This document shows, piece by piece, positions 442-61,314 of a DNA stretch of 64,000 bases. The DNA is from an uncultured Candidatus Saccharibacteria bacterium (lineage in GTDB: Bacteria > Patescibacteriota > Minisyncoccia > Phycocordibacterales > UBA5272): positions 12,047-76,046 of the forward strand of contig CAZUPO010000002.1 in the NCBI GenBank assembly GCA_964621595.1, written 5' to 3'. A program made the position numbers and the translations under genes. Numbering within the stretch: position 1 is the first letter of the stretch; each line of letters starts with the position of its first letter. The notes beneath the pieces are model-generated. The model did no database searches, was not told where the DNA came from, and was given only the letters and a program-made list of their open reading frames with translations.

Positions 442-583
442 ACTTTTAGTTATTCGTAATGTAGTAATTCTTTGGTGAATTACGGTCAATTTTTTAATAA
501 AAATGGCCGGCCACAGGGCCGACACACAACAGAAACACACACATCCAAGACACGAAATATATTATATCATAGATTTCCACACT

Positions 584-612
584 TTGCAAGTGGCTCTCTG
601 GTCTGTTAGTAT
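584..612 (+). promoter_or_regulatory. Putative sigma70 promoter for GC-rich cassette 1 (TTGCAA-N17-TAGTAT)
   Basis: -35 TTGCAA at 584-589, 17-nt spacer, -10 TAGTAT at 607-612. A 7-bp stem hairpin CTCCGAG/CTCGGAG lies at about 637-659 between promoter and SD. Confidence 0.4.
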
Positions 613-684
613 TACTAATTGAGTAGCACCTTTAATCCTCCGAGAGATCACCTCGGAGCCCACCCCCCAAAGAAGGAGGTCGTG

Positions 685-1254
685 ATGTCGAGAAAAACGT
701 ACGAGGTGGCAATTCCCTTCTCGATCAATCACCCCTTCCAGGGTGAAATCGAGCGGTGCGTGTGGGATTTGCAACTGGTGGTGCAAAACACGCTATCGTT
801 GCAATGGTGGGAAATACCCCGCTCCCCGCATATCGCGTTCCTGCCGCCCTTTCAAGCGGAAAAGAAAGACATGAGGAAGCAGGTTCCGGTCTTTCGAAGT
901 CGCATGGCTGACTGGAAATTGCCCAAGGCGACGCTCGGTAACGTCTGGTTGTGGGCGGCAGGGGACGGAACAATGGAACTCGTTCTTGGCGTCACCATGG
1001 AGGAATCGTTCCTTCGCCACGCGCAAAGGATCTGCGCCGAGATGTGGGGGGTGGGGAAATATTTCAGCCCCCGTATCACGGTCGGGAGAGGACAAAGTAG
1101 CGGACTCTCGATCGAGGAAGTGAACGCGCGCTTGCAGGCCAATGGACTGGATGAAGTCTCGGCCAAGGTGGCCGGTGCCCGCTGTCTGGACATTCCGCTT
1201 CCGGAGGCCTGCGAGGTGTTGGAATCGGGCGGTGTGCTGGGGTTGACTTACTAA
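685..1254 (+). CDS. Hypothetical protein in GC-rich cassette 1; possibly a degenerate 2H phosphoesterase (LigT-like) fold
   Basis: SD AAGGAGGT at 670-677, 5 nt before ATG at 685. The track ORF 619..1254 begins upstream of the SD. GC-rich codons. Two motifs at LigT-like spacing, HIAFL and RITVGR (compare HxTx...HxTxxR). Confidence 0.5.
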   Translation: MSRKTYEVAIPFSINHPFQGEIERCVWDLQLVVQNTLSLQWWEIPRSPHIAFLPPFQAEKKDMRKQVPVFRSRMADWKLPKATLGNVWLWAAGDGTMELVLGVTMEESFLRHAQRICAEMWGVGKYFSPRITVGRGQSSGLSIEEVNARLQANGLDEVSAKVAGARCLDIPLPEACEVLESGGVLGLTY

Positions 1255-1332
1255 ACCCCACCCCGCGGCATTTGATTCCAAACAAATAACAACCAATCTT
1301 GGGCGGATAGGAGGACCGCACCAAGATGTAAT

Positions 1333-1360
1333 GGGCCGCGCAAGTGCGCGGCCCATTTTC
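1333..1360. terminator. Rho-independent terminator, bidirectional position
   Basis: GGGCCGCGC-AAGT-GCGCGGCCC perfect 9-bp stem followed by ATTTTC. Sits between the convergent cassette-1 CDS and the ABC ATPase gene. Confidence 0.6.
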
Positions 1361-1386
1361 AAATATAAAAATTATTGAGAGTACTA

Positions 1387-2064
1387 TTATCCAACAACCA
1401 TCCCATCAGAGAGTTTGATGATGCGGTCGGCGAGTTTGCCATACTCTTCTTCGTGAGTCACCATGACAATGGTCAATCCTTCTTCTTTGTTTAATTTTTT
1501 AAAAATATCCATAACATTCCTTGAAGAGAAAGAATCGAGGTTGGCGGTTGGTTCGTCGGCAAATAAAATTTTTGGCTTGTGTGTTACAGCACGCGCAATC
1601 GACACTCGCTGCTGTTCTCCACCAGAGAGTTCTGATGGAAGATTATTTTGTCTGTGATCAAGATTAACACTTTTAAGAACTTCAAGCGCTCGAGTCTTGG
1701 CATGTTCCATAGTAATACCCTGCATAAGAAGAGGAACCATAATATTTTCAAGGGCGGTTAACTCCGGGAGCAACGAATAATCCTGGAAAACATATCCGAG
1801 TTCTGTAAGGCGGTAGTGTGTTTTCTCTTCATTGTTAAGGCGATCCACGATACGACCACTTAATTTAATAGAACCTGAGGTTGGAGTATCTAGAAGTGAC
1901 ATTTGATACATGAGTGTAGACTTACCAGCACCTGAACGTCCCATGATTGCAACAAATTCACCCTCTTCGACAGTAAGTGATATTCCCTTCAAAACCTGTG
2001 CGACCTCTGTGCCGTCGGTAAAACTTTTTGTTAACTCATGGACTTCGATAATGTGTTTTTTCAT
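1387..2064 (-). CDS. ABC transporter ATP-binding protein (MacB/LolD-like)
   Basis: Walker A GRSGAGKST, ABC signature LSGGEQQRVSIARA, Walker B ILFADEP. Confidence 0.9.
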   Translation of the reverse strand: MKKHIIEVHELTKSFTDGTEVAQVLKGISLTVEEGEFVAIMGRSGAGKSTLMYQMSLLDTPTSGSIKLSGRIVDRLNNEEKTHYRLTELGYVFQDYSLLPELTALENIMVPLLMQGITMEHAKTRALEVLKSVNLDHRQNNLPSELSGGEQQRVSIARAVTHKPKILFADEPTANLDSFSSRNVMDIFKKLNKEEGLTIVMVTHEEEYGKLADRIIKLSDGMVVG

Positions 2065-2073
2065 ATAGATGTT

Positions 2074-3402: not shown

Positions 3403-3472
3403 GCAAGATATACAGAGTATACCAGCAAGAAGCCTTACAACCCCCGTTCACTCATAACCACTGTGTGGAAAA

Positions 3473-8598: not shown

Positions 8599-9000
8599 AT
8601 GAATAAAGTTAATCTTGTTGTGGCTGTTGTAATTTCTTCCTTATTTATTACACATGCCGCCACCTACAATAAAGAACTCTACACACAATGTGAGCGTGTC
8701 GCGCACGAGAAAAAAAATTCTCTCTTAGCAAAAGGGCTGAAAGACTACACTAAACGAAGCGAGGAGATTCGTCGCAAGGCGGCCACGAAGTTTACCTCTA
8801 TCAGTTGGTACGTAGACACCTCATATCGCCTGAATTCAAAACAGATTCTCGACGCCAGAAAGAAAGAATATGACGAACTAGACGCAACAATGAAGGAGTT
8901 GCGAAAAGGGGTTAACGAAACGTACAAAGCAGAAGAGGCGCTGTGTGAACTAAACTTTTTACAAAAGGATACAACGACAAAAACTTCTTCCCCGAAATAG
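8599..9000 (+). CDS. Secreted hypothetical protein, likely paralog of 8030..8566
   Basis: Signal peptide. Same two-Cys K/E-rich architecture as the upstream gene. Confidence 0.5.
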   Translation: MNKVNLVVAVVISSLFITHAATYNKELYTQCERVAHEKKNSLLAKGLKDYTKRSEEIRRKAATKFTSISWYVDTSYRLNSKQILDARKKEYDELDATMKELRKGVNETYKAEEALCELNFLQKDTTTKTSSPK

Positions 9001-9005: not shown

Positions 9006-9824
9006 TTAAGATTTTTTTACTAGTTCTTTCTTTTCAATCATTTCTCGTATTCTCTTGTTGGCATCAACCTTTACACCATGGTCTTTTATAAATGAATACA
9101 TCGCGAGTATCATTTTTTGAATATCACTGTGTCGTATTTCTATGACGAGCTGATCGTCGAGTGCCAAAAGATACAGCGAATCCTTAAAAGCAAATATTTG
9201 CCCTGAGTGGTTAAAATATTTCTTATCAGCATACACGGTGGAACTTGTTCTTCCTTCATAGTCCCTTGCCCACTCATCGCCGAGTGCATTAAAATGATCT
9301 TCTAACCACCCCATAGGAACGATAAGTTCTGTTATAAGAGAATTCTTTTTAATTATTCTGTTTGTTTCGTTAATTTCTTCTTGGGTAAATGTTGCAAGCC
9401 AACTCTCAAGAGGTGTCACGTCGGTGAGCGCAAGGAATCGTTCTTGCTTGTGGGCCATAAACATCGTAAAAAATATTTTTCTTACTGCCTCTTTTCCTCG
9501 ATGTACTACAATTGTGCTGTCTTCTACTCCAACAACCTCTTCACGCCCATCACTTAACTGTAAAAGTGACTTTTTTAATTCATAAAGTGTTTCTGCTAAT
9601 TCTTTACTGTTTGTAAAATGCCAAGACTTTTTTCCTTCAAGGATTCGTGAGTCCGCAATTCCTCTCTTTTTAAGTTTTTGTAAAATAACATACACGGCTG
9701 GTCTTGTAACCTTTGTATGTCTAGCAATGGAAAGGGGTGTAATGTGCCCCTTTTGTAGCGCCTCAAGTACTTTTTGTTCTTTGTTAGATAAACCTAGTAT
9801 GTGTAACTTTTTTTGTATTTCCAT
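9006..9824 (-). CDS. Putative HTH transcriptional regulator (TrmB/MarR-like N-terminus)
   Basis: N-terminal winged-helix-like segment LSNKEQKVLEALQKGHITPLSIARHTKVTRPAVYVILQKLKKRGI. Confidence 0.5.
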   Translation of the reverse strand: MEIQKKLHILGLSNKEQKVLEALQKGHITPLSIARHTKVTRPAVYVILQKLKKRGIADSRILEGKKSWHFTNSKELAETLYELKKSLLQLSDGREEVVGVEDSTIVVHRGKEAVRKIFFTMFMAHKQERFLALTDVTPLESWLATFTQEEINETNRIIKKNSLITELIVPMGWLEDHFNALGDEWARDYEGRTSSTVYADKKYFNHSGQIFAFKDSLYLLALDDQLVIEIRHSDIQKMILAMYSFIKDHGVKVDANKRIREMIEKKELVKKS

Positions 9825-10038
9825 GTCTAGAGTATACCTACTTTTACTAATTTTGTAAAGTTTTTATGACATATTATACAACTACTATGTCCTTTAAATA
9901 TAATGATATTTAGCATAATTTACTAAATTACAACTTTATTTTTTACTGTCAATATATTTTCTGGCATACTGCTTTCAGACAAGAAAAGTTCCTTGAATCT
10001 AATGGGTCGCGACCTTATAGCGAGAAAGGAGGTGACTT

Positions 10039-10167
10039 ATGATGAGCGCCGAGGTTGTGGGCTTCTCGGGTGCCAGTTGCGACAAGCAGCGACCGACACG
10101 TACCGAGAAGGTCTCCGCCCTCAAGGCGCCGTCGAAGGGTGCAACATCCCCTTCCAAAGGCACCTAA
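10039..10167 (+). CDS. Small ORF encoding 42-aa peptide MMSAEVVGFSGASCDKQRPTRTEKVSALKAPSKGATSPSKGT; candidate precursor or leader peptide
   Basis: Strong SD AAAGGAGGTGA at 10026-10036, ATG at 10039, TAA at 10165-10167. GC-rich. Different frame from the listed 9993..10274 ORF, which has no SD. Confidence 0.35.
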   Translation: MMSAEVVGFSGASCDKQRPTRTEKVSALKAPSKGATSPSKGT

Positions 10168-10201
10168 GGGTGAAGCCTTCCCTGCAAAGGCAGGCAGAGT
10201 T

Positions 10202-10302
10202 GGGGGGAAACTCTGTTAATAAAACCCCCAAGCAGTCAATCAACAACTTAGTGACATTACGGTTGTTGATTTAGCCCGGTGAGCGTACTTCACCGGTTTT
10301 CT
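10202..10302 (+). promoter_or_regulatory. Three consecutive hairpins between the peptide ORF and the radical SAM gene; the last resembles an intrinsic terminator or attenuator
   Basis: GGGGGG...CCCCC at 10203-10229. AATCAACAAC/GTTGTTGATT at 10238-10271. CCGGTGA-GCGTACT-TCACCGG plus TTTTCT at 10276-10302. Confidence 0.45.
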
Positions 10303-10373
10303 ATCGGGGATGTAATTGAATATTGCATCTCAGTAGAGAACCTTGAAATCAAAACTACATAGGGAGAAATTCC

Positions 10374-11288
10374 ATGATCGCCATGACTGCTGTGCTACCT
10401 GCGGTTGGTGGTTGCAATCTCAAGTGCGCGGGATGTTTTATTAATCAGCGCAAAGAGACCAATACCATCGACATGCGTACTGAGGACTACTTGAGATTTT
10501 TCAAGGAAACCCTCGCGATGCCGGAAGTCAACTCGTTTTCCATCCAGGGGCACGAGGCGCTTCTTCCCAGTGTGTACGAACTCACCAAGGAGTTGCTACA
10601 CATGAGCTGGGATGCCGGGCTGGTGACGTTGCTCGTCACCAATGGCGTGTACCTCAAAGAGGTCGCGCATGAGATTGTGCAAATCACTGACAGCATCATC
10701 GTGTCGGTAGATAGCCACAATCCGGCCCTGCATGACCTCTCGAGAGGAGAGCAGGGTGCCTGGCAAAAAACCATTGGCGGCATACAAGCCGTTCGTGATT
10801 GCTTTGAGGACGGAGTGGTTGGCGATGAGGTGTTCTCAAAATACATCTCTGTTGCATCCATTCTTTACCCGGGCAAGGTTGATCGCCTCCTTGGAATGCC
10901 GGAGCTTCTCAAGAAGCTTGGTGTTACCAACTGGGTGATAAGCCCGCTTATTTCCTTGAAAAGGGGAGGATACCACGACTCTGATTACATCCGCGTGAGG
11001 GAAAACCTCCTTCAACTTACCGAAATGGGTAAGACGCACGGTGTCAGGGTTGCTCTTTCCGACGAGTTTCGGAAACTAGAGCATGTGGAAGACCTTTTCA
11101 AGGCCTTGAGCGTCGATACGCTGGACAAAAATGCGACAATCGTAAGGTTGTCTCCTGATGCTTCAGTACGCGTCGGAAGAGAGATTCTTCAAGAAGAATC
11201 TTTTCGCAAATGGGACAGGAGAGAAGATCCTGTTGAGTTCCTCAAGGGGGCTCTTGCCGAATACAAGATTCGGTACTCCAATGTCTAG
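10374..11288 (+). CDS. Radical SAM enzyme (CxxxCxxC), no obvious SPASM domain
   Basis: GGCNLKCAGCF motif at residues about 12-21. SD AGGGAGA 7 nt upstream. GC-rich codon usage. Confidence 0.8.
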   Translation: MIAMTAVLPAVGGCNLKCAGCFINQRKETNTIDMRTEDYLRFFKETLAMPEVNSFSIQGHEALLPSVYELTKELLHMSWDAGLVTLLVTNGVYLKEVAHEIVQITDSIIVSVDSHNPALHDLSRGEQGAWQKTIGGIQAVRDCFEDGVVGDEVFSKYISVASILYPGKVDRLLGMPELLKKLGVTNWVISPLISLKRGGYHDSDYIRVRENLLQLTEMGKTHGVRVALSDEFRKLEHVEDLFKALSVDTLDKNATIVRLSPDASVRVGREILQEESFRKWDRREDPVEFLKGALAEYKIRYSNV

Positions 11289-11576
11289 AATGGGCATCGA
11301 CCGCAGACCTTGGTCTGACTGCGGTATATAAATTAACAAGGACATCTGGTGGCGGTGAAATAAACGACACACAGGTACGTGAAGAGGTATAAAAGACTAA
11401 AGCCCTTCACAAAGCTCCATTGGTAGACGCGCTTAGACTACCCGCTGTGAACCGAGCGTGATCGTGGTTATGGGGAATTGAGTGTCTACACCTCTTCCCC
11501 ATCTTTATAAAGTTTCTAAAGTAATTTAGGAATTTTTAGAGATATGTTCTTTAAAACCAACCTAAGGGAGATACAC

Positions 11577-11954
11577 ATGAGCACCATGATCAATGTCCTC
11601 GTTGTTGACGATGAAGCATACATGATGGAAGTGGTGGCCTGGATGGCCAAAAAGTCTGGGGTCAATATGAGCCGGGCTAGCACCAGGGTGGAGATGGAAA
11701 AATTCCTGGGAGAATCGTCCTTCGACGCCATCCTCATGGATGGCAACCTCTCCGGATGGGGTACGACGCATGAACCCAATTTCCCCGGAGCATGGGTGGT
11801 GCATGAGCTTCGTGGTCGTGGTATCACAACGAAGATCTTCATGTTTTCGTCCGATGAGGAGCGTCTTGCGGAAGGAATCGCGCTGGGTGCAAATGGGGTC
11901 TTCAGCAAAAGGAAGAGTGACTGGAAGGAACTCGTCCAACTCGTGAAGAGTTAG
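11577..11954 (+). CDS. Stand-alone response-regulator receiver (CheY-like REC) domain protein
   Basis: INVLVVDDE acidic pocket, ILMDGNL phospho-acceptor Asp, FMFSSDEE and FSKRK motifs. SD AAGGGAGA before ATG 11577. No output domain. Confidence 0.7.
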   Translation: MSTMINVLVVDDEAYMMEVVAWMAKKSGVNMSRASTRVEMEKFLGESSFDAILMDGNLSGWGTTHEPNFPGAWVVHELRGRGITTKIFMFSSDEERLAEGIALGANGVFSKRKSDWKELVQLVKS

Positions 11955-11961
11955 GCACGAA

Positions 11962-11989
11962 GGGGCAACGAAAGTTGCTCCTTTTTTAT
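11962..11989. terminator. Hairpin terminator between the convergent REC gene and xth
   Basis: GGGGCAAC-GAAA-GTTGCTCC then TTTTTTATTT. Confidence 0.55.
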
Positions 11990-12757
11990 TTATACTGTCA
12001 CCTCAAGTGACACGGGGCAATGATCACTACCGTACACATCGTTCAGAATTTCTGCTTTCATAACTTTTTGTTTACTCTTCTTATTCACAAAAAAGTAATC
12101 TATTCTCCATCCGATATTTCTCTCACGTGCGCGAGTCTTTTGATCCCACCAAGAATATTTCACCACCTCGGTGTGCAACTCTCTAAAAATATCAACGAAG
12201 CCCTCCTGAATCACACGATCAATCCATGACCTCTCTACTGGTAGAAAGCCAATACTGTTTTCGTTTTCTTTTGGTCGCGCAATATCAATTTCCTGGTGAG
12301 CAACGTTTAGGTCTCCACAGAAAATAACCGTCTCGTATTTTTTCTGAAGGGCGCTGACATGCTTAAGAAATTTATCGTAGTATCGTAGTTTAAATTGGAA
12401 ATGCTCTTCGTCTCGACCCCCGTTTGGCATGTAACACGTTACAAATGCAAATGTTTTGAAATGCACGGTAATCGCACGGCCCTCAATATCAAATGAATTG
12501 TCTCCAAGACCATACTGCACTTTTTCTGGTTTTATTTTTGTATATACCGCCGTCCCTGAATAACCCTTTCGTTCCTTGGCACTATCAAAGTATGAGTAGT
12601 ACCCTGGTGGATTTTTTATTTCCTCCGAAAGTTGATCTGGTGTTGATTTTGTTTCTTGAATACCTATGATGTCGGCGCCCATAGAAAATAACTCCTGGAG
12701 TCCTCCCTTTTTATGCATTGCCCGTATTCCATTTACATTCCAAGAAATACATTTCAT
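11990..12757 (-). CDS. xth: Exodeoxyribonuclease III (AP endonuclease, Xth family)
   Basis: MKCISWNVNGIRA...GADIIGIQETK. Start chosen at the MKCISWNVNG Met; the track ORF extends 40 codons further upstream. Confidence 0.85.
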   Translation of the reverse strand: MKCISWNVNGIRAMHKKGGLQELFSMGADIIGIQETKSTPDQLSEEIKNPPGYYSYFDSAKERKGYSGTAVYTKIKPEKVQYGLGDNSFDIEGRAITVHFKTFAFVTCYMPNGGRDEEHFQFKLRYYDKFLKHVSALQKKYETVIFCGDLNVAHQEIDIARPKENENSIGFLPVERSWIDRVIQEGFVDIFRELHTEVVKYSWWDQKTRARERNIGWRIDYFFVNKKSKQKVMKAEILNDVYGSDHCPVSLEVTV

Positions 12758-13540: not shown

Positions 13541-13570
13541 TATAAAAAAAGAAACTGAGAGGGGTCCTCT
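13541..13570 (-). terminator. Terminator for the small GC-rich ORF (minus strand)
   Basis: On the minus strand GAGAGG-ACC-CCTCTC followed by a 9-T run (A-run 13544-13553 on +). Confidence 0.45.
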
Positions 13571-13590
13571 CGGTCGTGCAACCGGTGCAC

Positions 13591-13836
13591 TCATTCACCC
13601 GCACCGGGGCGCCCGCACCTGCGATGAAAGCAGGGCTCTTCCTCCGGAGTCCCACACTCTTTCACGGTGCAGGACTTGCTTGGAGGAAAGAACGTGTCGC
13701 TGAGCGGGGGTTTCCAGCCATCGTTGAACGGAAGCGTCACCAGCCCCGCAGCGACCATCTGGCGCCCGGCAGAGCTGGCGACCGGATGACTCACGCTTGC
13801 CTCGTCAGCGGTCGGTGTATTGGCGTCTCGAGCCAT
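13591..13836 (-). CDS. Small GC-rich hypothetical protein (81 aa) with C-terminal four-Cys cluster
   Basis: SD AAAGGAGGA then ATG (rc of 13834-13836). MARDANTPTADEAS...CTVKECGTPEEEPCFHRRCGRPGAGE. Promoter-like TTGACT-N16-TACACT upstream on minus at about 13851-13885. Confidence 0.45.
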   Translation of the reverse strand: MARDANTPTADEASVSHPVASSAGRQMVAAGLVTLPFNDGWKPPLSDTFFPPSKSCTVKECGTPEEEPCFHRRCGRPGAGE

Positions 13837-13890
13837 ACCATCCTCCTTTTCGGTTAAAGTGCTTTCAGTGTACAATAATTTTATAAAAAG

Positions 13891-14847
13891 TCAACCATGA
13901 TCCTTCTTTCTTTTGGTGTGGAACTTCTCAAACTGATCCCTCAGGAATTTGTTGGTAACGTTGGTATAGATCTGTGTCGTTGCAATCGACGCATGACCAA
14001 GCATCATTTGTACCGTACGTAAATCCGCTCCATTATAAAGAAGATCAGTTGCGAATGAGTGACGTATGACGTGTGGTGTGCACTTCTTGGCAATGCCTGC
14101 ACGCTCGGCATACTTGTTCACTGTGCGCTCTACACTGCGCGGGGTAAGGCGAATAGATTCTTCTTTTTCGATACGTGCCGCGGCCCGAGGCGAGTGATCA
14201 ACAAACATTGCTTCATCTATATCTACCCTCTCTCGAAGATATGCTTTCACTGCATCATGAGCATGAGAAGACACAAAAACCACGCGAATTTTTCCACCCT
14301 TTCCACGTACGGAAATTTCTCCATTTCCAAGATCAATATCTCTATCGAGTGAACAGAGTTCGGACACGCGAAGCCCAGTTGAAAAGAGAAGTTCAAGCAT
14401 GGCGCGGTCACGCAAACCAGCGAGGGTCTTTGCATCCGGCGCCGAAAGAAGAAGAGAGAGTTCTTTTTCACTAATTAAATCAAGTTCTCTCCCGACTGTC
14501 TTTGCTAGTTCAATTCGCTCTGGATCATACCCCTTGATACCTTTGCGGCGCACATATTTGAGAAATGCTCGAAGAGCTATGAGGTGATAGTTCTGTGTTT
14601 TTTTATCGAGCGTTTCTTGTGCTTGCCCTTTTTTCTGTTTGCGTGCTGGGTGACGATTTAAATAAATTCGATACTCTCGCATGAGTGCTTCTGTAATTTC
14701 AGAAGGGGAGGAAACTTTGTGAACCTTTTCAGCGAATTCTAAAAAGCGAGAAATGTAGTGATCGTAGTTGCGCACAGTGAGTGCTGATCGACCTTTTTCG
14801 ATTTCGATGTATTGTAAAAAATCTTGTTTGAGAGAAAACAAATCCAT
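13891..14847 (-). CDS. Tyrosine site-specific recombinase XerC/XerD family
   Basis: C-terminal catalytic region HVIRHSFATDLLYNGADLRTVQMMLGHASIATTQIYTNV (R..HxxR..Y). Start taken at MDLFSLKQ. Confidence 0.85.
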   Translation of the reverse strand: MDLFSLKQDFLQYIEIEKGRSALTVRNYDHYISRFLEFAEKVHKVSSPSEITEALMREYRIYLNRHPARKQKKGQAQETLDKKTQNYHLIALRAFLKYVRRKGIKGYDPERIELAKTVGRELDLISEKELSLLLSAPDAKTLAGLRDRAMLELLFSTGLRVSELCSLDRDIDLGNGEISVRGKGGKIRVVFVSSHAHDAVKAYLRERVDIDEAMFVDHSPRAAARIEKEESIRLTPRSVERTVNKYAERAGIAKKCTPHVIRHSFATDLLYNGADLRTVQMMLGHASIATTQIYTNVTNKFLRDQFEKFHTKRKKDHG

Positions 14848-14902
14848 TCTCACAAGTATACTCCAGTGTCGCACAATATTACCCAGACTTGTTCACCTGG
14901 TC

Positions 14903-14945
14903 ACCAAAATAAAAAGAACGCCCTCCTCGCGGGGGCGCGAAAGAG
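14903..14945 (-). terminator. GC-rich hairpin terminator downstream of the 14975..15595 gene
   Basis: CGCCCTCC-TCGCG-GGGG-CGCGA-AAGAGGGCG compound hairpin, then a T-run on the minus strand. Confidence 0.4.
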
Positions 14946-14974
14946 GGCGGGTTGGGGGTCGGTCGGAAGGATGA

Positions 14975-15595
14975 CTACCGGCTGGAGAAGGGGAAGGCGA
15001 TGACCTTGATCGCCAACTCCTCGGCAATCGTCTCGCCGTCGCGATTTGCCACAGACGTCATCCACCGTTCGACATGCAGGAGGTTGTTCTCTCGGTGCAC
15101 CGAGACCGTCGTCTCGACATTACCGTTTAGACGCATCGCGATGGTCTCGAATCCGATGAGACCCTTCATGATGTTACCGTCGTCGTCGATGAGGACGATG
15201 CGGCACGTCTTCAGGTACCGCGGCAACATGCGCACGACCACGTCACCGGTGGTGCAACTGCCGGGGTTCTTGAGGGCGGTGATCGGTCGAGGCAACCTGC
15301 GCTCCTCGATCAGATCGCTACCTCGATAGACCGTAATCGAACGCGATCCGCCTCGCATGAGGTGCGTGCTGCGCTCTTCCTTGCCGGTCTCGAGCGACCG
15401 CTCCGAGATGATGAACCCCTCGGATGCGGCGGTCACGACCGCCATGGTGTCGTAGGACACCGGCAGGCGAACCACCTGGCCAGAGGTGCGCTCGACGCGA
15501 TAACCTGTGACCTGGTAGAGGTACTTCCCTTCGTCACCCTGGGCAAACGCGCCGAAGGAAACGAAGGAAAGGACAAACAAGATGAGGGTGTGCAT
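14975..15595 (-). CDS. Secreted hypothetical protein (206 aa), GC-rich cassette 4
   Basis: Signal peptide MHTLILFVLSFVSFGAFAQG. SD AAGGAGG 6 nt before ATG. GC-rich codons. Confidence 0.55.
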   Translation of the reverse strand: MHTLILFVLSFVSFGAFAQGDEGKYLYQVTGYRVERTSGQVVRLPVSYDTMAVVTAASEGFIISERSLETGKEERSTHLMRGGSRSITVYRGSDLIEERRLPRPITALKNPGSCTTGDVVVRMLPRYLKTCRIVLIDDDGNIMKGLIGFETIAMRLNGNVETTVSVHRENNLLHVERWMTSVANRDGETIAEELAIKVIAFPFSSR

Positions 15596-15649
15596 GCGGC
15601 CTCCTTGAGGCTTAGCGGGTTTAGGGATTGGGGGAACTGAAGGATTTTT

Positions 15650-15678
15650 ATACTACAATGTTTTTTGTAATGAGTCAA
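15650..15678 (-). promoter_or_regulatory. Putative sigma70 promoter (TTGACT-N17-TAGTAT) for the 14975..15595 gene
   Basis: On minus: -35 rc of 15673-15678, -10 rc of 15650-15655, 17-nt spacer. Divergent from the rpsO promoter. Confidence 0.45.
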
Positions 15679-47447: not shown

Positions 47448-47720
47448 AAATAGGGGGAGGAGGGGATATTTGACAAAAAATTATAGTATGATATAATGGT
47501 CCACATACACAGAGGTTTGTGAAGTTGCTAGCAGTATCTGTACGGTTCGTTTGACAAAACCTATACATCTCTAAACAATCGGGAGTTTCTCTCATCTTCC
47601 ATGACGAAGGACGGTCTGGTCGCACTTTGTTTGCGTACTGTGCCTATCCTTACGAAGGATTATTCTTCACCAAGGGGTTGCTTAGAGATGTATGGGTTTT
47701 TGTTTTGTCTAAAAACGTAT

Positions 47721-49605: not shown

Positions 49606-49709
49606 TATAGATAAGTTCGTAGGGGTGGCTCTAGGGCCAACTCTCACGAAATTCCATTGTAAATCAAGTAGTTCTAACGCTGCGGGAGACCGCGGAGAAG
49701 GAGAGAATC

Positions 49710-50351
49710 ATGCAACGCCTTATCATCGCGGCGATCCTCGTCGCGAGCGCCCTCCTCGGAGGGTGCGCAGGGATGCCCGGGTTTGGAGATACGGGTGCAG
49801 TTGGGGGTGAGGTCATTACCCTGCGCTGCGCAGATCCCGACCCCGGCTATCGCGGACTACCCAACGGAAGTTGGGTGAAGGGCCCCTGCTACAACTGGCA
49901 GGTCGCAGAGCCCGGCCACACCGGGGGATATACCCGCCAGATCAGAACGGGCTCCAGCAACGCATGCCGTACGGCGATGGAAGTCGCAGGGATCGGTGTT
50001 GGGGTTGGTGTTGGTGCCCTGTCCACCACGCAGAAGAACAGGCTGGCTGGCATGCTCATTGGTGGAGCCGTCGGGTACGGGGGTGGTTACCTCATCGGTA
50101 ACACCTTCTGCAGCAAGAACACCGTCGAGGGTATCCTCGCCGGTGGTGGTACTCGGCCCTCCGTCAAGTACTACGACGGGGCGCCGACGGTCAAAGGGGG
50201 TGTGACCTGCGCCCTCCGCCACAACGACCGGCTGGTCGCCGACTTCTTCGACAAGAAGAAGAACCCGGAGGGTATCGAGATTCCCTCTCAGGGCGCAGGC
50301 GAGCAGTGCCGGGCCGCCATCGAGCGAGTCCGGAAGCAGGCGGGGATCTAA
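49710..50351 (+). CDS. Lipoprotein with glycine-zipper motif (SlyB/17-kDa-antigen-like), GC-rich cassette 5
   Basis: Lipobox LLGGC after the signal peptide. GIGVGVGVGALS...GMLIGGAVGYGGGYLIGN glycine zipper. SD AAGGAGAG 6 nt before ATG. Confidence 0.6.
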   Translation: MQRLIIAAILVASALLGGCAGMPGFGDTGAVGGEVITLRCADPDPGYRGLPNGSWVKGPCYNWQVAEPGHTGGYTRQIRTGSSNACRTAMEVAGIGVGVGVGALSTTQKNRLAGMLIGGAVGYGGGYLIGNTFCSKNTVEGILAGGGTRPSVKYYDGAPTVKGGVTCALRHNDRLVADFFDKKKNPEGIEIPSQGAGEQCRAAIERVRKQAGI

Positions 50352-50374
50352 TTCCCGCCGCGAGCAACAACTTC

Positions 50375-50410
50375 GAGGCTGGGCCCTGTGCCCAGCCTCT
50401 TTCATTTTTA
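50375..50410 (+). terminator. Rho-independent terminator
   Basis: GAGGCTGGGC-CCTGT-GCCCAGCCTC perfect 10-bp stem followed by TTTCATTTTTAT. Confidence 0.7.
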
Positions 50411-50477
50411 TATAAAAGCATTGCAAAATAAGGATTTTTTAGTACCCAATCCCAAAAGAGTAAAGTATAAATAGGGG

Positions 50478-50506
50478 TTGACAAATAGAACTGAACCTGA
50501 TATAAT
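50478..50506 (+). promoter_or_regulatory. Perfect-consensus sigma70 promoter (TTGACA-N17-TATAAT)
   Basis: -35 at 50478-50483, -10 at 50501-50506. The 118-nt leader has two GACTTAAGTT direct repeats (50515-50524 and 50541-50550) and a CCGCGGA-TAT-TCCGCGG hairpin at 50589-50605, abutting the SD. Confidence 0.55.
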
Positions 50507-50624
50507 ATACCCATAGACTTAAGTTAGTGGAAGATAGTTCCGGACTTAAGTTGTCTCGTTCCCCATCAACCTCATCAACAAAACCCAAACCGCGGATATT
50601 CCGCGGAGAAAGAAGGAGATCACC

Positions 50625-51314
50625 ATGTTTGGATACTTGCGCGCGCTGCAAGGCGCGCACAACACGCAGTGGCAAGGTCAGGCGCGCGGCCGTTTCGGCC
50701 GTCGCGCGGGGGCGATCACCTTCTGGGCGATCGTCATCCTCATCCTCCTGCTGTCCCTCTGGGGCAGCTGGAAACTCTCGTCCGCGGCCAACAACCAGGA
50801 CGAGCTGGTAGCGAACCTGCGCCAGCAGGTCACTACCCTGACCGGCGCGGACACCCGCGCCACCGTCTGCCAGACGGAGCTTGACAAGAGCAATACCGAA
50901 CTGAAGCAGGTGAAGTCCTTCTTCCCCGAGGGGGTCAACCTCGAGGGGGTCAAGAAGGCCTGCGCGGTTCTCACCCCGGCAGGTCCGACCAGGACCTCGG
51001 TCCCGACCGGTAGCGGCCGTGCGGCTCCCACCGCTCCGACCAACGCCGCGTGTACCACCTGCGCCTCCCCGGCGCAGACCATCCGCGTGGTGTTGGAGCA
51101 ACAACCCGCGCCGGCGCCCGCCACCCCGGTGGCGCAGCGCGAGGAGCCGAAGGCGCCGGTCGTCGAGATGAAGCCGTGCACGTACTACGTGAACGGCGTC
51201 TCGAAGGCAACCACCAGGTTACCCGAAGGTTCGTCCTTCGAATCGGAGTGCCGCCGCTGGACCGACGGCCTCGCGGCCGCCGGCAAAAAGAAATTCTCCA
51301 ACCAGGTGGACTAA
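50625..51314 (+). CDS. Membrane-anchored coiled-coil / Pro-Ala-rich hypothetical protein, GC-rich cassette 6
   Basis: Basic N-terminus, TM AITFWAIVILILLLSLWGSW, coiled-coil, Pro/Ala/Thr-rich linker, Cys-containing C-terminus. SD AAGGAGA. Confidence 0.55.
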   Translation: MFGYLRALQGAHNTQWQGQARGRFGRRAGAITFWAIVILILLLSLWGSWKLSSAANNQDELVANLRQQVTTLTGADTRATVCQTELDKSNTELKQVKSFFPEGVNLEGVKKACAVLTPAGPTRTSVPTGSGRAAPTAPTNAACTTCASPAQTIRVVLEQQPAPAPATPVAQREEPKAPVVEMKPCTYYVNGVSKATTRLPEGSSFESECRRWTDGLAAAGKKKFSNQVD

Positions 51315-51346
51315 GGATCCACCTAGGGGGTCACAAACCCCCACTC

Positions 51347-51385
51347 AAGCCGCCAGCGCACCCCGCCGGCGGCTTCTCTTTTTGC
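51347..51385 (+). terminator. Rho-independent terminator (preceded by a second small hairpin GGGGGT...ACCCCC at 51326-51342)
   Basis: AAGCCGCC-(14-nt loop)-GGCGGCTT followed by CTCTTTTT. Confidence 0.55.
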
Positions 51386-51388
51386 CTA

Positions 51389-51417
51389 TTGACATTTCTA
51401 AATAAAGATAGTATAAT
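51389..51417 (+). promoter_or_regulatory. Perfect-consensus sigma70 promoter (TTGACA-N17-TATAAT) for the surface-repeat protein gene
   Basis: -35 at 51389-51394, -10 at 51412-51417. AT-rich leader with no SD, unlike the two upstream cassettes. Confidence 0.55.
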
Positions 51418-51467: not shown

Positions 51468-53477
51468 ATGAAAAACAAAATTATTAAAGCAAACATCGTA
51501 ACCGCAGTCCTTTTCACGGGCATTTTTATGCTTGCTGTTGGAACCGCGTCTGCGCAGTCTGATGGTTTTGGATATAACTACGTAGATGTACCAAGTGGTT
51601 ATAACTATGTAGATACTTCTGACTACGGAACAACGAATGTAAATTCAGGAACAGGCTACAACTATGTAGACACTACTACTGCCCCTTCGACATCGTTTGG
51701 CTACAACTATGTAGATTCTTCATCCCCATCAACAACTTTTGGTTATAACTATGTAGATAGTACAGATAATTCTGGTTATGGAACGACAAATGTCTATACA
51801 AACACACCAACGGTTGGATACACAGGATCATCGTTCCTCAGCGGCTTCGGAGGACTTAGTGGATTTGGATACACTCCTTCCTACTACTCTTCTGGTATTG
51901 GATACACAACATATGGGTATACCAACTACGGATCTAATCCAACAACACAGTGTCCTTCAGGAACCAATTATGTAAATGGTGTATGTCAGCCAAATACACA
52001 GTGTCCTTCTGGTACCAACTATGTAAACGGCGTGTGTGTTCCGACAACACAATGTCCAGCAGGAACAACCTACAGCAATGGATCATGTGTTGTTAACTCA
52101 GTAAGTTGTCCATCAGGAACAACCCTTGTGAACGGAGCGTGTGTTGTAAATACAACCACATGTCCAGCGGGCACAACTCTTGTAAATGGTGTATGTACTA
52201 CAAACATCACTACTTGTCCCGCAGGAACAACTCTCATAAACGGTGTATGTACAACTAATATAATTACTCCTACGTATGTATGTCCAAATGGAACGACAGT
52301 AAACTACTCATACCAGTGTCCTACGACAACATACACATATCAAACATGTTGGGACGGAACAACTATTCCACTTAACTCAGTATGTCCTAATCAGTACAAA
52401 CTTTGTCCAAACGGAACAAGTATCCCTGTTAACCAAACATGTTACTACGGAACAACATACACATACGCTGTTCCTCAAACTATTATCAAGTTCAACAATG
52501 TTGTAACATCTCCTGCAACACAGGTGACAAACAACTCAGGTCGTTGTAACGGTATCGGACTTATCGCAAACGGCGCTGCGTCAACTGGATGGTTCGAATA
52601 CGGAGAAACATCATCTCTTGGTCGCGAAACAGCGCATGCGTCCATCGGCAACAACCACACTGCACCATTCTCTAACCTTCTTACAAACCTCAAGCCAAAT
52701 ACTCGCTACTACTGTCGCGCTGTAATGCAGAATCAGTATGGAGTTGTAAAAGGGGAGATCGTTGGATTCACTACAAAGGGAACAAAAGTTACATACGTAA
52801 CCCCAGTTGTAAAAACAGTTGTTAAAAAGGTTGAAAAGAAGCCAGAAGTAACTTGTACAGACGGCACAACTTCATGGGTAAAGAACGGATCTGCAACGGT
52901 AACCTCTACTGTACAAGGAGATAAGTTGGTAGCACTCACCGTTGATAACACATTCTCTCGTTACGCAGCAGGATCACCAATAACATACAAGATCTCATAC
53001 AAGAATCTATCAGATTCTACTCTCACAGGAGTTCTTGTCTCAGTGGTTCTTCCAGCAGAAATCGAAATTACAAGCGCAAGTGCTGGTACCTACGATGTAA
53101 TGACTCGTACCCTTACAGCGAATGTCGATATTCTCGGAGCACGCAGTGAAGGAACAATCACCATCGAAGGCGTTGTATCAAAAGATGCATCTATCGGTAA
53201 GAGTGTCGTTACAACTGGATACATTGTTTACACCGTACCAAGTACAAAACTTCAAGACGAAGTTACTGCGTATACTGTCGGATCAATCTCCCCAAGTGAT
53301 GCAACTCTCAAGTCAGATACAGGTGCAAAGAAGGTGTACGATCTAGGCGGAAGTGAACGTAGTTTCCTACCAAACACTCTCGTGGAATGGTTAGCACTCA
53401 TCGCAATTGTCTTCATCGTATTCATCCTTGCACGAAGCATTTATCTCTCTTACCAGGGAGATAAAGAAGGACACTAG
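51468..53477 (+). CDS. Large cell-surface repeat protein with C-terminal TM anchor
   Basis: Signal peptide. Six GYNYVD-containing repeats. About eight Cys-bracketed repeats (QCPSGTNYVNGVC / TCPAGTTLVNGVC). C-terminal hydrophobic anchor LALIAIVFIVFILARS. Confidence 0.6.
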   Translation: MKNKIIKANIVTAVLFTGIFMLAVGTASAQSDGFGYNYVDVPSGYNYVDTSDYGTTNVNSGTGYNYVDTTTAPSTSFGYNYVDSSSPSTTFGYNYVDSTDNSGYGTTNVYTNTPTVGYTGSSFLSGFGGLSGFGYTPSYYSSGIGYTTYGYTNYGSNPTTQCPSGTNYVNGVCQPNTQCPSGTNYVNGVCVPTTQCPAGTTYSNGSCVVNSVSCPSGTTLVNGACVVNTTTCPAGTTLVNGVCTTNITTCPAGTTLINGVCTTNIITPTYVCPNGTTVNYSYQCPTTTYTYQTCWDGTTIPLNSVCPNQYKLCPNGTSIPVNQTCYYGTTYTYAVPQTIIKFNNVVTSPATQVTNNSGRCNGIGLIANGAASTGWFEYGETSSLGRETAHASIGNNHTAPFSNLLTNLKPNTRYYCRAVMQNQYGVVKGEIVGFTTKGTKVTYVTPVVKTVVKKVEKKPEVTCTDGTTSWVKNGSATVTSTVQGDKLVALTVDNTFSRYAAGSPITYKISYKNLSDSTLTGVLVSVVLPAEIEITSASAGTYDVMTRTLTANVDILGARSEGTITIEGVVSKDASIGKSVVTTGYIVYTVPSTKLQDEVTAYTVGSISPSDATLKSDTGAKKVYDLGGSERSFLPNTLVEWLALIAIVFIVFILARSIYLSYQGDKEGH

Positions 53478-57012: not shown

Positions 57013-57019
57013 TACAACC

Positions 57020-58454: not shown

Positions 58455-58575
58455 TCACAAATCTGCCTCGTCGCTGACTTCTCGAAGCAGATTCGCGACC
58501 CCGTTCGAGTATGAAGCCCTCAGTTCAATTAATATAAAAAGAAAGAGCGCTGATTAAGCGCTCCACCAACTCGAG

Positions 58576-58965: not shown

Positions 58966-59177
58966 TCAAAAAACAAGTTAATATATATTAACACTATTAA
59001 AACATCTTGTCAACTATCTGTGGGGTGAATTCAACCCTCAAGTATAACAATATTTCCTCTTAGAATTGTTCCAACTTCATACCAAACCCTCAGAGCCGAA
59101 GACTTGTATTCGATTACTGACAAAAGCCAAGCAGTTAGTTTTTTCTGTTTGCACATAATTTGTTGCACAAATTTTTG

Positions 59178-59250
59178 TGCCCCCAGCAGGAATCGAACCT
59201 GCGACCGTTTGCTTAAAAGGCAACTGCTCTACCGACTGAGCTATAGGGGC
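59178..59250 (-). tRNA. tRNA-Lys (anticodon UUU)
   Basis: rc gives GCCCCTATAGCTCAGTCGGTAGAGCAGTTGCCTTTTAAGCAAACGGTCGCAGGTTCGATTCCTGCTGGGGGCA. 7-bp acceptor, D-arm GCTC/GAGC, anticodon loop CUUUUAA, T-arm GCAGG-TTCGATT-CCTGC. Confidence 0.85.
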
Positions 59251-59546
59251 ATTCATTAGTGTTTTGAAAAGATGCTATACAAAATTTTTTGCATACTGCT
59301 TTTCTCAATAATGTTTCACTATCCTATCACAAAAGACAATATTTTTCTAGTAATGGAAGGGCTATTGTGAGAGGGTGCTCGTCCCAAAAGTTTTGAGAGT
59401 TCCGTCTGCGTTTAGTCCAACATACGGCCGACTAGCATCATCACGAAGTGGTCCACCAGTTATATACCAAAGAATCCACACTGCCCAAAATATAAGAAAG
59501 ATTTTAAAGAGGGTCCACATATGTAGAAGTATAGCAAAAAAGTTTA

Positions 59547-60467
59547 CTATTTTTGACAGGTAGTACAAAAATGTGCGCTGCGACCACCGACTGTTTTCTT
59601 ATGAATTATTCCAGAACAATCTTTTTTGGTACAAGGTTGTTTTGTTCTAAGATAAACGTTGTGGTTGTGGTGGAATGCTCCGCGCTCCCCAGATACGTTT
59701 CGGTAGTCACTTGTACTATCTCCACCAAAATCAATTCCCTTCGAGAGAACTTTTTTCATGGCAGCATATAAAAGAGGCCACTCTGAATCACGAACTTTTT
59801 TGGGTATTCGTGTAGGTAAAATGTGGGCAAGGTGAAGCATTTCATCTGAGTAAATATTTCCAATCCCGGCAATTATTTTTTGATCCATGAGAACAGTTTT
59901 TATCGCGCGCGCCGGGGAGAGGAGTACACGTTCTCGAAATTTCTCGAGCGTGAAGTTTTTTTCCAACGGCTCTGGACCCAAATGTGAAAATCGCCCAGTT
60001 TCTAGAGAAGACGTTCTTTCTACTACAATGGTGCCAAACTTGCGTGAGTCACAAAATACCAGGTGGTTGTTATTTGAAAGTGTAAACACAACATGAATGT
60101 GTCGATTGTATGGATCAGAAAGAGCGGAATTTTTTTGCTTGGGAATCCACGCCCACTCTTTCCCGTTGTAGTGTTCATTATGTACGTAACTACCGTACAT
60201 AAGGTGACCGGTCATTTTCATGTGTATGATCACCGTGCAACCATTTTCTAAATCGATAAGGATATGTTTTGCGCGACGACGAACACGAAGAATTTTTGTT
60301 CCGAGAGCGTACTTTTTAAAATATGAAAAATATCCTCGATCCTTGATGGTGTTCTTTGCGAGTTTGGAGGTGCTCCACATGTCGGACCACACATCCACAA
60401 ACCTTTTTCCAGGTAGGATTTTTTGTAGTCCAGTGACTGTTGTATGAACTTCTGGTAATTCTGGCAT
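59547..60467 (-). CDS. fpg: Formamidopyrimidine-DNA glycosylase (Fpg/Nei family)
   Basis: N-terminal MPELPEV catalytic motif (start chosen there). C-terminal zinc finger CTKKDCSG...CTTCQK. Confidence 0.85.
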   Translation of the reverse strand: MPELPEVHTTVTGLQKILPGKRFVDVWSDMWSTSKLAKNTIKDRGYFSYFKKYALGTKILRVRRRAKHILIDLENGCTVIIHMKMTGHLMYGSYVHNEHYNGKEWAWIPKQKNSALSDPYNRHIHVVFTLSNNNHLVFCDSRKFGTIVVERTSSLETGRFSHLGPEPLEKNFTLEKFRERVLLSPARAIKTVLMDQKIIAGIGNIYSDEMLHLAHILPTRIPKKVRDSEWPLLYAAMKKVLSKGIDFGGDSTSDYRNVSGERGAFHHNHNVYLRTKQPCTKKDCSGIIHKKTVGGRSAHFCTTCQK

Positions 60468-60590
60468 AGGTATCTTGTAGAGTATAGAAAAAGATAGAAA
60501 TTCGCAATGGTTACATTTATCACACTTTCTGGTAGTATGGTACCTGAATCCCAGTATTTTAGGGAAAAACCAGTCAACCGAGGAGATACC

Positions 60591-61268
60591 ATGAAACACG
60601 TCGGAGGCGGCGAGCGGCGCCGCAACAGAAAGATCACGGCGCAGATCCGCCGCGCGATCAAGAACGGCTTCACGTACTACGCAAGGACGGTGTGCGGGCG
60701 CCCGCGAAGAATCCCGAGCGAAGTAACCGCACCTGCGAATCCTGCACCGGTGGCAAAGGTCGCGGAGGAAGACAATTCCTACCTCCAGATCAAGCTTGCG
60801 GATATCCGGGTGGGCGCCGAGCTCTACAGTTGGGAACTGCTTCGGATGTCTGCGGCAGGGATCAACACGCTCGGGGATCTCTATGCGGTCGGCTTCTCTG
60901 GTTTCCTCGCAACACCGAATCTCGAGAAGGGGACCATTCTGAAGATCGGCGGGTGGTTGCGGGTAAACCGGTACCCGATGATTCCCGAGATGGGAAATGG
61001 GTTACGGTTGGAATTCACGAAGTTCAGCGTCACGCCGGTGACCAGTCTTCCCCTTCGGCAGATGACGATGAATTCCTTCGAGCGGGCTAGCATCAGGACA
61101 CTCGGGGAGGTCTATCGTCTGGGCTTCTCGGGGCTGAAGCACGTCCTCGGTCGCCATGGATTTGGTGCCAAGAGGAAGGAAGACATCATCCAGGCGCTCC
61201 AGAACATCGGGGCTCCGCCGCTCAACGAGATGGGCCACAACGAAGACTGGGCTCCGAAAGGAGGATAG
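60591..61268 (+). CDS. GC-rich protein with two tandem RNA polymerase alpha C-terminal-domain (alphaCTD)-like helix-hairpin-helix modules
   Basis: SD GAGGAGA before ATG 60591. Repeats AAGINTLGDLYAVGFSGFLATPNLEKGTILKIGGWL and RASIRTLGEVYRLGFSGLKHVLGRHGFGAKRKEDIIQALQNIG resemble alphaCTD (ANCLKAEAIHYIGDL...[20 protein letters not shown]). Basic N-terminus. Confidence 0.55.
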   Translation: MKHVGGGERRRNRKITAQIRRAIKNGFTYYARTVCGRPRRIPSEVTAPANPAPVAKVAEEDNSYLQIKLADIRVGAELYSWELLRMSAAGINTLGDLYAVGFSGFLATPNLEKGTILKIGGWLRVNRYPMIPEMGNGLRLEFTKFSVTPVTSLPLRQMTMNSFERASIRTLGEVYRLGFSGLKHVLGRHGFGAKRKEDIIQALQNIGAPPLNEMGHNEDWAPKGG

Positions 61269-61281
61269 AAGGAGACCAGGA

Positions 61282-61309
61282 AAGGGGTCGCGCGTAAGCG
61301 CGACCCCTT
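61282..61309. terminator. Perfect 12-bp stem hairpin between convergent genes
   Basis: AAGGGGTCGCGC-GTAA-GCGCGACCCCTT. Weak T-tract. Confidence 0.5.
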
Positions 61310-61314
61310 AACAT

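Follow-up and report, generated by a model that had tools for sequence, protein, structure and literature searches.

GC-rich, Shine-Dalgarno-led accessory cassettes at variable sites of a Paceibacteria-like genome, probably mostly of within-lineage origin

Phage morons and small genomic islets are single genes or small operons that carry their own promoter and terminator, show an atypical composition, encode heterogeneous products and are present in some relatives and absent from others. The same features were found in seven GC-rich units, named C1 to C7, of the DNA analysed here, a window of 64,000 nucleotides from contig CAZUPO010000002.1, with presence or absence among relatives applying to several of them. 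A preliminary description of this window had suggested moron-like acquisitions from a single high-GC donor using Shine-Dalgarno (SD) sequences, or else engineered or contaminating inserts. Unlike morons and islets, however, these cassettes lack any prophage or mobility context, have a GC content above that of their host and use host-type promoters; no donor is detectable, and at least one of the loci keeps its atypical GC content clade-wide, with no drift towards the host. We propose that they are accessory cassettes of a class spread throughout the lineage, rich in GC, leadered, dependent on SDs, seated at conserved hot spots and mostly of within-lineage origin, a reading to which we assign a probability of about 0.6.

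According to this proposal, each unit would start with a host-type sigma-70 promoter, near-perfect in its consensus for C5 and C6, followed by a leader of 30-115 nt, which often begins with a stem-loop and in which the SD stays unpaired. Translation would be initiated by way of the SD, and the GC-rich coding body would end in a strong intrinsic terminator. The origins would be mixed, with C5/C6 as an old resident locus, C2 as a module mobile among bacteria of the candidate phyla radiation (CPR), and C1, C3, C4 and C7 as species-specific orphans, while the hot spots could also capture foreign open reading frames (ORFs), such as an hfq gene in a relative.

Composition and expression signals of the cassettes

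A search with PolA returned 55 loci from metagenome-assembled genomes (MAGs) of the Paceibacterota/Nomurabacteria type, mostly with 62-73% identity and with 45% for the most distant one. Judged by these relatives, whose loci and contigs are labelled L0xx in the following, the host of the window is an uncultured, AT-rich, Paceibacteria/Nomurabacteria-like CPR bacterium. The proposed contrast between seven GC-rich segments and an AT-richer host was borne out by computation. The units have a GC content of 0.51-0.67 compared to 0.44 for the host (0.437 for the whole window), and per-ORF statistics gave a GC content at third codon positions (GC3) of 0.60-0.87 for the cassette ORFs and of 0.25-0.45 for the surrounding host genes, the host value being about 0.38. 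Sliding windows revealed islands at 620-1361 (GC 0.57), 9976-11983 (patchy, GC 0.44-0.54), about 13560-13885 (GC 0.54-0.61), 14842-15652 (GC 0.58), 49618-51403 (GC 0.61) and 60523-61362 (GC 0.56-0.58), and both measures thus show islands instead of a uniform composition. The segment coordinates given in the preliminary description hold; its layout had to be corrected, with C3 and C4 on the minus strand, a three-gene unit in the segment at 9990-11990, and C5 and C6 joined in one two-gene locus. Altogether, nine cassette ORFs are spread over seven units at five loci. Codon-position GC picks the same frames as those indicated by the SDs, with which public gene calls concur. The GC3 shift is uniform over every degenerate codon family, G- and C-ending codons both being more frequent, and the amino-acid usage is only modestly changed.

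A canonical SD on every cassette, as claimed initially, was found for all nine ORFs, each preceded by a GGAG/GAGG core with an SD:anti-SD duplex energy of -7.9 to -18.9 kcal/mol. The value of -7.9 kcal/mol is reached by 14.5% of GC-matched 22-mers from inside the cassettes, giving P~3e-8 for 9/9 after this GC control, and by only 2/53 host starts (Fisher p=3e-9). Host genes had been described as devoid of SDs, and indeed SDs at host starts are not enriched (15% versus a background of 17.8% at -6 kcal/mol or below). Instead, 17/52 host genes display a -10 box (at least 5/6 positions) ending 4-11 nt (mode 6-7 nt) ahead of the start codon, an arrangement found at only 4.7% of control ATGs (p=1e-10). 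As far as these motifs tell, many genes of the host core are leaderless and without SD. The -10 boxes of the cassettes lie 30-118 nt upstream of the ORFs, which means that the cassettes have true leaders, and the contrast between host and cassettes is one of translation-initiation mode and not of motif presence alone. Since the SDs are conserved across species, we infer that they are functional and that the ribosome keeps its anti-SD. Next to C6 lies the gene of a large DUF11/CLIPPER-type surface protein (51468-53477, plus strand), in which YNY-type repeats and tandem repeats of 51-54 nt with Cys codons occur. It is transcribed from a 12/12 promoter, and its leader of about 50 nt has no SD, showing that some host genes are leadered yet SD-less.

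The TTGACx-N16/17-TAnnnT promoter originally ascribed to all units fits C3, C4, C5 and C6 at 9-12 of 12 positions; C1, C2 and C7 rely on an extended -10 box only (TGnTAnnnT). Generic promoter and terminator scans of the window gave no enrichment over shuffled sequence, and only near-perfect sites are informative. Four promoters with 11-12/12 positions occur in the scanned 60 kb of the window, two of which drive C5 and C6 and one the adjacent surface-protein gene. A GC hairpin with a T-run closes every unit (-15.7 to -29.6 kcal/mol), in agreement with the preliminary description, and such terminators are present at host genes too.

A resident surface-protein locus and a peptide-radical-SAM module

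Unit C5 (49578..50399, plus strand) is transcribed from a promoter with 11/12 consensus positions (TTGACA-16-TATACT), and its leader of 98 nt contains two hairpins, one at the 5' end and one directly ahead of the unpaired SD. Its ORF (49710-50351) encodes a 213-aa lipoprotein with a glycine zipper, a feature that Pfam detects only weakly, and ends before a terminator at 50375-50399. In one same-strain ENA assembly (L006), 48 nt including this terminator hairpin (50364-50411) are missing, whether through a genuine indel or through a slip of the assembly at the hairpin. In unit C6 (50478..51374, plus strand), a 12/12 consensus promoter with TG is followed by a leader of 112 nt, which has a 5' hairpin (z=-3.0) and, as in C5, a second one directly ahead of the unpaired SD. 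Its ORF (50625-51314) encodes 229 aa and has a GC3 of 0.87, and a double-hairpin terminator lies at about 51326-51374. The C6 protein is composed of a transmembrane anchor, a coiled coil, a proline-rich linker and a cysteine module. Rfam offered nothing credible for both leaders at E<=1; C5 showed no match in viral contigs and C6 none in plasmids.

Most of the PolA loci carry a GC-rich island in the same position, 2.6-4.5 kb upstream of polA, with a pilB-like ATPase gene (competence/pilus) on one side and the gene of a large DUF11/CLIPPER surface protein on the other. The host GC content of these genomes is 0.36-0.47, and the genes at this position are GC-rich, SD-led and code for surface proteins in at least 17 related species. 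All 24 island ORFs examined in relatives are SD-led, and 22 of them have a promoter with 11-12/12 positions (TTGACA/T-N16-17-TATACT/TATAAT), with leader lengths of 45-127 nt. In these 22 leaders, the initial 45 nt form a hairpin more stable than in shuffled sequences (mean z=-2.1, p=2e-6, tested in silico with predicted transcription start sites), the hairpin sequences themselves differing between genomes. By inspection, the island ORFs all encode secreted, lipoprotein or membrane-anchored products with low-complexity linkers and small Cys-bounded modules, falling into several small families. The C-terminal part of C5 matches syntenic-island ORFs of L036 (41% over 82 aa, E=8e-9) and L043 by tblastn; the other syntenic ORFs are mostly not BLAST-detectable homologues of C5 or C6.

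Comparison of close relatives showed how these islands change. In the pair L016/L019, with flanks 85-90% identical, the first island gene has orthologous N-terminal 150 aa (79% nucleotide identity) and swapped C-terminal modules, and the second is unalignable at the DNA level with its C6-like architecture kept. In L037/L038, the entire island is unalignable between flanks of 76-79% identity. Mosaic recombination is the best explanation for this diversification as far as the sequences go. In 18 genomes, the GC3 of the islands correlates with that of the host and exceeds it by +0.33 on average (r=0.64, p=7e-4, slope 1.15), the islands having been chosen by a host-relative threshold and the correlation carrying no phylogenetic correction. 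Synteny, mosaicism and GC3 tracking together indicate that C5/C6 is an old resident locus with rapid in-place diversification and a constant GC excess rather than a recent import, as the sequences of these relatives suggest. The recent acquisition assumed previously is contradicted here by GC-rich, SD-led genes across the clade, and the decaying signature expected of an islet from a donor was not seen, the excess being present in at least 17 species.

Unit C2 (9942..11984, plus strand) comprises an extended -10 promoter (9942-9970), an SD-led gene for a basic peptide of 42 aa (10039-10167), a hairpin attenuator (10276-10296), the gene C2b for a radical-SAM enzyme (10374-11288; PF04055, E=2e-11, motif CNLKCAGC), a gene for a REC-only response regulator (11577-11954) and a terminator (11959-11984). 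Divergent from it lies the leaderless gene of a TrmB-family helix-turn-helix regulator (9006..9824, minus strand; Pfam TrmB) with a GC content of 0.37. Only 14 relatives of C2b were found in 5.8 billion clusters, and the three contexts examined (L078, L080 and L082) are all CPR contigs, which carry the same mini-module, namely a divergent TrmB-like regulator, a peptide of 44-47 aa and the radical-SAM gene, each at a different chromosomal position. The REC-only response regulator is present in the window's copy. In all four genomes, a 42-47-aa ORF precedes the radical-SAM gene, TrmB adjoins both, and peptide and radical-SAM genes are always SD-led; the TrmB and radical-SAM genes diverge in step, and promoter and SD hairpin are conserved. 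An element of the form TTCTATCAAGG-hairpin-CTTGTAGAGA upstream of the radical-SAM gene is also conserved in the four genomes. At the C2 site of the window, L063-L066 and L070 lack the module plus the neighbouring gene at 8599-9000. Going by these contexts, C2 is a module that appears to move within the CPR clade. The TrmB gene is 0.10-0.14 lower in GC content than the co-inherited radical-SAM gene in all four lineages, including L080 with a whole-genome GC content of 55-60%, which means that the GC difference follows the class of gene or transcript and not its origin. Searching Pfam with the radical-SAM enzyme revealed Radical_SAM and Fer4_12 only, with no SPASM/RRE, and the neighbouring genes, for TrmB and the REC-only response regulator, include neither a dedicated protease nor an exporter, so that the status of C2 as a system for ribosomally synthesised and post-translationally modified peptides (RiPPs) is no more than a lead; possibly, the module represents a novel RiPP-like system confined to CPR bacteria.

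Orphan cassettes, variable sites and rival origins

The remaining four units encode proteins without recognisable family. In C1 (587..1360, plus strand), a weak -35 box with an extended -10 box (TTGCAA-N17-tgtTAGTAT, about 587-615) precedes a hairpin-containing leader of about 65 nt, the SD AAGGAGG (673-679), an orphan ORF of 189 aa (685-1254) and a terminator at 1331-1356. C3 (13557..13894, minus strand) consists of a promoter (TTGACT-16-TACACT, 13894-13867), a leader of about 30 nt with the SD AAGGAGG, an ORF of 81 aa that is also called in public assemblies (13836-13591) and a terminator at 13571-13557. C4 (14919..15678, minus strand) starts with the promoter TTGACT-17-TAGTAT (15678-15650) and the SD AAGGAGG, continues with an orphan ORF of 206 aa with a signal peptide (15595-14975) and ends with a terminator at about 14949-14919. 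C7 (60530..61308, plus strand) is preceded by an extended -10 box (tgGTAGTAT, 60530-60538) and a leader of about 50 nt with the SD GAGGAG; its orphan ORF (60591-61268) encodes 225 aa with a basic N-terminus and two helix-hairpin-helix repeats resembling the C-terminal domain of the RNA polymerase alpha subunit, followed by a terminator at 61283-61308. The terminators of C1, C7 and an hfq gene in L065 (14530-14555) share a near-identical all-G/C stem (GGCCGCGC / GGTCGCGC), with the 4-nt loop AAGT in C1 and GTAA in the other two; judged by sequence, this could be convergence or a shared terminator module.

A word-indexed protein search gave no homologues of C1 and C4, and none were present in a phage collection or in plasmids. 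Full phmmer retrieved only C7 itself among 1.84 billion representative proteins, with no match in viral contigs. Hence, no homologues of C1, C4 and C7 were detected outside their own species in 1.8-5.8 billion proteins. AlphaFold2 models of C1 and C4 were unusable, with a predicted local distance difference test score (pLDDT) of about 38.

The sites of these units vary among relatives. At the C1 position, L065, L067 and L072 hold GC-rich islands, other relatives do not. The C3 site is empty in L063 and L064 and occupied by hfq in L065. C4 occupies about 770 bp as a discrete block, with the xer leader on one side and the rpsO promoter on the other, both of them conserved; L065 and L066 do not have this block, and in L070 the interval contains 3.6 kb of other sequence. 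No target-site duplication was found at the C4 junction. In the same xer-rpsO interval of L070, palindromic repeats (TACCTCCCCCAAAGAGGTAGGGGTGGTGGGCTAC) recur about every 70 nt over 9340-9620 and 12374-12541, which could be a CRISPR array or an element similar to repetitive extragenic palindromes. The fpg-mur junction, where C7 resides, is empty (13-78 bp) in at least five relatives and holds 160-2,280 bp of varied content in others. Overall, empty sites were found in relatives for C2, C4 and C7, the C5/C6 position is filled in most of them, and C1 and C3 are mixed, in line with the earlier view of accessory genes of atypical composition. Species-specific orphans at variable hot spots are the best explanation for C1, C3, C4 and C7.

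Between C3 and C4 lies a leaderless gene of host GC content for a XerC/D-like tyrosine recombinase (13891..14847, minus strand), scoring 235 bits as XerD/XerC and 114 bits as integron integrase (TIGR02249, cutoff 265). It is 79-84% identical in relatives and the most conserved gene of its region; we consider it as context for C3 and C4 and do not claim that it acts on the cassettes.

The strongest of the competing explanations keeps the idea of acquisition in a weaker form, in which some of the cassettes were acquired. Several GC-rich, SD-using donors, possibly including the bacteria on which the symbiont lives, would have delivered genes into the hot spots over time, host promoters being gained later, and the orphan appearance would be due to unsampled donors or fast protein evolution. 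The hfq gene of L065 (14584-14847, minus strand), located at the C3 site between uppS and xer, speaks for this. It is SD-led, has a GC3 of 0.72, scores above the NCBIfam Hfq equivalog cutoff and is about 86% identical to PDB 3sb2, which we take to be the Hfq of Herbaspirillum, a betaproteobacterium. By sequence, this is a clear cross-phylum transfer of an RNA chaperone of betaproteobacterial type into a CPR genome. Its flanks are a host-type promoter and a terminator GGCCGCGC-GTAA-GCGCGGCC resembling those of C1 and C7, which means that genuine cross-phylum imports do enter these slots and bear lineage-type signals. Import from GC-rich, SD-using donors, as suggested in the preliminary description, therefore occurs in the lineage. 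The empty sites of C2, C4 and C7 and the uniform GC3 shift, typical of GC-rich genomes, also fit several donors. Furthermore, horizontal gene transfer into Patescibacteria, with other members of the group as the main source, is documented in the literature, also for MAGs of the same clade (PMC12455944). On the other hand, searches of billions of metagenomic proteins, including those of freshwater bacteria, gave no homologue of C1, C4 or C7, the relatives of C2b occur in CPR genomes only in the contexts examined, the GC excess of C5/C6 in at least 17 species tracks host GC3 and comes with conserved promoters and leaders, and the GC offset is held inside the co-inherited C2 module. We regard this explanation as possible, though on the whole unlikely, and as the main rival of a within-lineage origin.

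Another way to raise GC3 would be GC-biased gene conversion, the cassettes being recombination hot spots in which allelic exchange lifts the GC content. Modules swapped between close relatives, the uniform shift of both G- and C-ending codons, an excess that persists and tracks the host, and the competence/pilus ATPase gene adjoining C5/C6 would all agree with it. However, the GC boundaries are sharp and lie at the edges of transcript units, the TrmB gene, although inherited together with C2 and located about 200 bp from its promoter, remains AT-rich, and the effects of GC-biased gene conversion reported in bacteria are far below the offset of +0.33 seen here, making this process improbable as the cause.

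Still less credible are recent moron-like acquisitions of self-contained foreign units from one high-GC, SD-using donor, as originally supposed. Atypical composition with a uniform GC3 shift, an SD at all ORFs, a promoter and terminator of its own for each unit and the heterogeneous products had made this idea attractive, and it is now largely refuted. The spread of GC3 from 0.60 to 0.87 does not suit a single source, and the promoters are of host type, the layout of promoter, leader and SD being the lineage's own and found in 17 related genomes. The C5/C6 locus is old. A high-GC donor is not reflected in the searches made, in which homologues from such a donor were not found, C1, C4 and C7 being orphans and C2b having only CPR relatives in the contexts examined. 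As to moron status, the genes flanking the cassettes (nusA/ABC transporter, uppS, xer, rpsO, pilB/DUF11 surface protein and fpg/mur ligase) are in no case phage genes, and C1, C4, C5 and C7 are without viral or phage matches; nor did a search among the cassettes reveal a repeat or att-like family common to them. Finally, chimeric assembly, contamination or engineered inserts, for which nothing but the abrupt composition changes would speak, are refuted and practically out of the question, since all cassette junctions recur at at least 99.98% identity in independent JGI, ENA and Logan assemblies (those of C1 in at least 6), the contigs of the window's species all being clonal, and analogous islands occupy the same sites in dozens of MAGs from other studies.

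With regard to our preferred reading, a lineage-wide class of mostly home-grown cassettes, the weakest step is the cause of the GC excess. We tentatively consider, with more doubt than confidence, that selection on stability, structure or expression, acting on the transcript unit, maintains it and that it is not a fading donor signature; a 5' hairpin combined with a GC-rich body would stabilise the mRNA and raise expression. The uniform shift over codon families with its modest amino-acid change rules out classical translational selection and fits either a different substitution equilibrium or foreign ancestry, of which the recent kind fails for C5/C6 and C2 given the clade-wide persistence and the CPR-only module. 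Consensus promoters, 5' hairpins, accessible SDs and strong terminators are consistent with transcript-level selection. Our caution is due to the ribosomal-protein genes of the window, which are not GC-rich and thereby disagree with a simple link between expression and GC content.

Several further points weigh against the class as we have delineated it. A uniform GC3 shift is expected from foreign ancestry too, and the GC3 of 0.87 of C6 is extreme for a resident gene; the way in which the islands were chosen for the GC3 correlation belongs here as well. SD-led genes with host-like GC content exist in relatives (L078), so SD and high GC are separable. C1 and the ORF at the C1 position of L065 are not significantly similar (E=0.72). 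A hidden Markov model (HMM) of the two-Cys C-terminal module of relatives matched C5 marginally (E=0.0026 among 386 ORFs) and C6 not at all, while full-length family HMMs and a glycine-zipper HMM matched neither; the architectural likeness of C5/C6 to their counterparts is therefore a matter of inspection, save for the tblastn matches of C5, and homology of C6 to the syntenic ORFs has no statistical support. The searches of the large protein databases covered C1, C2b, C4 and C7. Leadered and leaderless genes were assigned from sequence motifs and not from mapped transcription start sites. The 3' end of the 16S rRNA gene was not found in the 90 loci examined, the anti-SD thus being inferred, and only about 48% of Parcubacteria 16S genes have been reported to contain the anti-SD motif (PMC9297842).

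A bolder version of the within-lineage reading, which we consider doubtful, would divide the genes of Paceibacteria into two regimes, an AT-rich, largely leaderless core and a set of conserved "expression slots". A slot would combine a consensus promoter and a 5'-hairpin leader with an SD and a GC terminator; its ORFs would turn over by mosaic recombination with occasional foreign capture, as in the case of hfq, and transcript-level selection would hold its GC3 about 0.3 above that of the genome. Such slots would amount to a promoter-carrying cassette system distinct from integrons, with SD initiation as a separate expression channel.

Some features of the window are unrelated to the cassettes. 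Rfam at gathering thresholds detected two tRNAs only. A perfect 12/12 sigma-70 promoter with TG (47470-47497, plus strand) is located between two minus-strand genes and followed by about 200 nt without an ORF and with a T-rich end; this region (47470-47700), which has no Rfam match even at E<=1, is a candidate for a small RNA. A direct repeat of 230 nt with 100% identity (34967-35196 and 37168-37397) lies inside two different host genes, encoding an uncharacterised protein of 276 aa and an SLT-domain transglycosylase of 328 aa, and specifies an identical N-terminal membrane segment of about 77 aa in both proteins, which looks like the outcome of a recent gene conversion between paralogues.

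Significance and comparison with known systems

CPR bacteria, or Patescibacteria, make up a large uncultured share of bacterial diversity, and their gene expression is barely known. Should the class described here be real, an atypical GC content would be no safe proxy for recent horizontal gene transfer in these genomes, for which it is used in island calling and in the decontamination of MAGs. The SD-led genes would constitute a compact, recognisable set of probable surface and effector genes, among which the lipoprotein/anchored-protein pair next to pilB and the peptide-radical-SAM module would be prime candidates for host interaction in episymbionts. It would also become a testable question whether leaderless and SD initiation are two separately regulated channels of reduced ribosomes; some organisms with reduced ribosomes reportedly lack an anti-SD.

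Among the known systems, the integron is suggested by small heterogeneous units beside a tyrosine recombinase, as C3 and C4 flank xer. Nevertheless, this recombinase is of the XerC/D type and not IntI, attC-like shared repeats are missing, each cassette has a promoter of its own, the units are scattered among five loci, and their 3' hairpins are simple terminators. The enterobacterial O-antigen (rfb) clusters resemble the cassettes in their fixed position, conserved flanks, mosaic content, surface products and long-lived compositional offset. In contrast to these clusters, the cassettes encode proteins and not enzymes of polysaccharide synthesis, their offset is directed towards high GC, their genes are separate transcription units, and they initiate translation in another way than the core genes do.

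At the level of the transcript, C5/C6 and their counterparts are reminiscent of the highly expressed mRNAs of the ompA/lpp type, which a 5' stem-loop stabilises. Shared features are a consensus promoter, a long leader opening with a hairpin, an SD that is both strong and accessible, and a strong terminator, the product being an envelope (lipo)protein; this likeness is in silico only, the leaders have no sequence similarity, and the coding GC excess has no counterpart in ompA. Mixed sets of leaderless and SD-led genes are also found in Actinobacteria and Deinococcus, with two modes per genome and a -10 box about 6-7 nt before the ATG, but here the SD-led minority is accessory, fast-evolving and higher in GC3 by about 0.3. 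Taken together, the cassettes join features of known kinds, namely genomic islets, hypervariable surface loci and mixed leaderless/SD genomes, and the feature for which those kinds offer no explanation, a persistent GC excess linked to transcript class, is what makes them potentially interesting.

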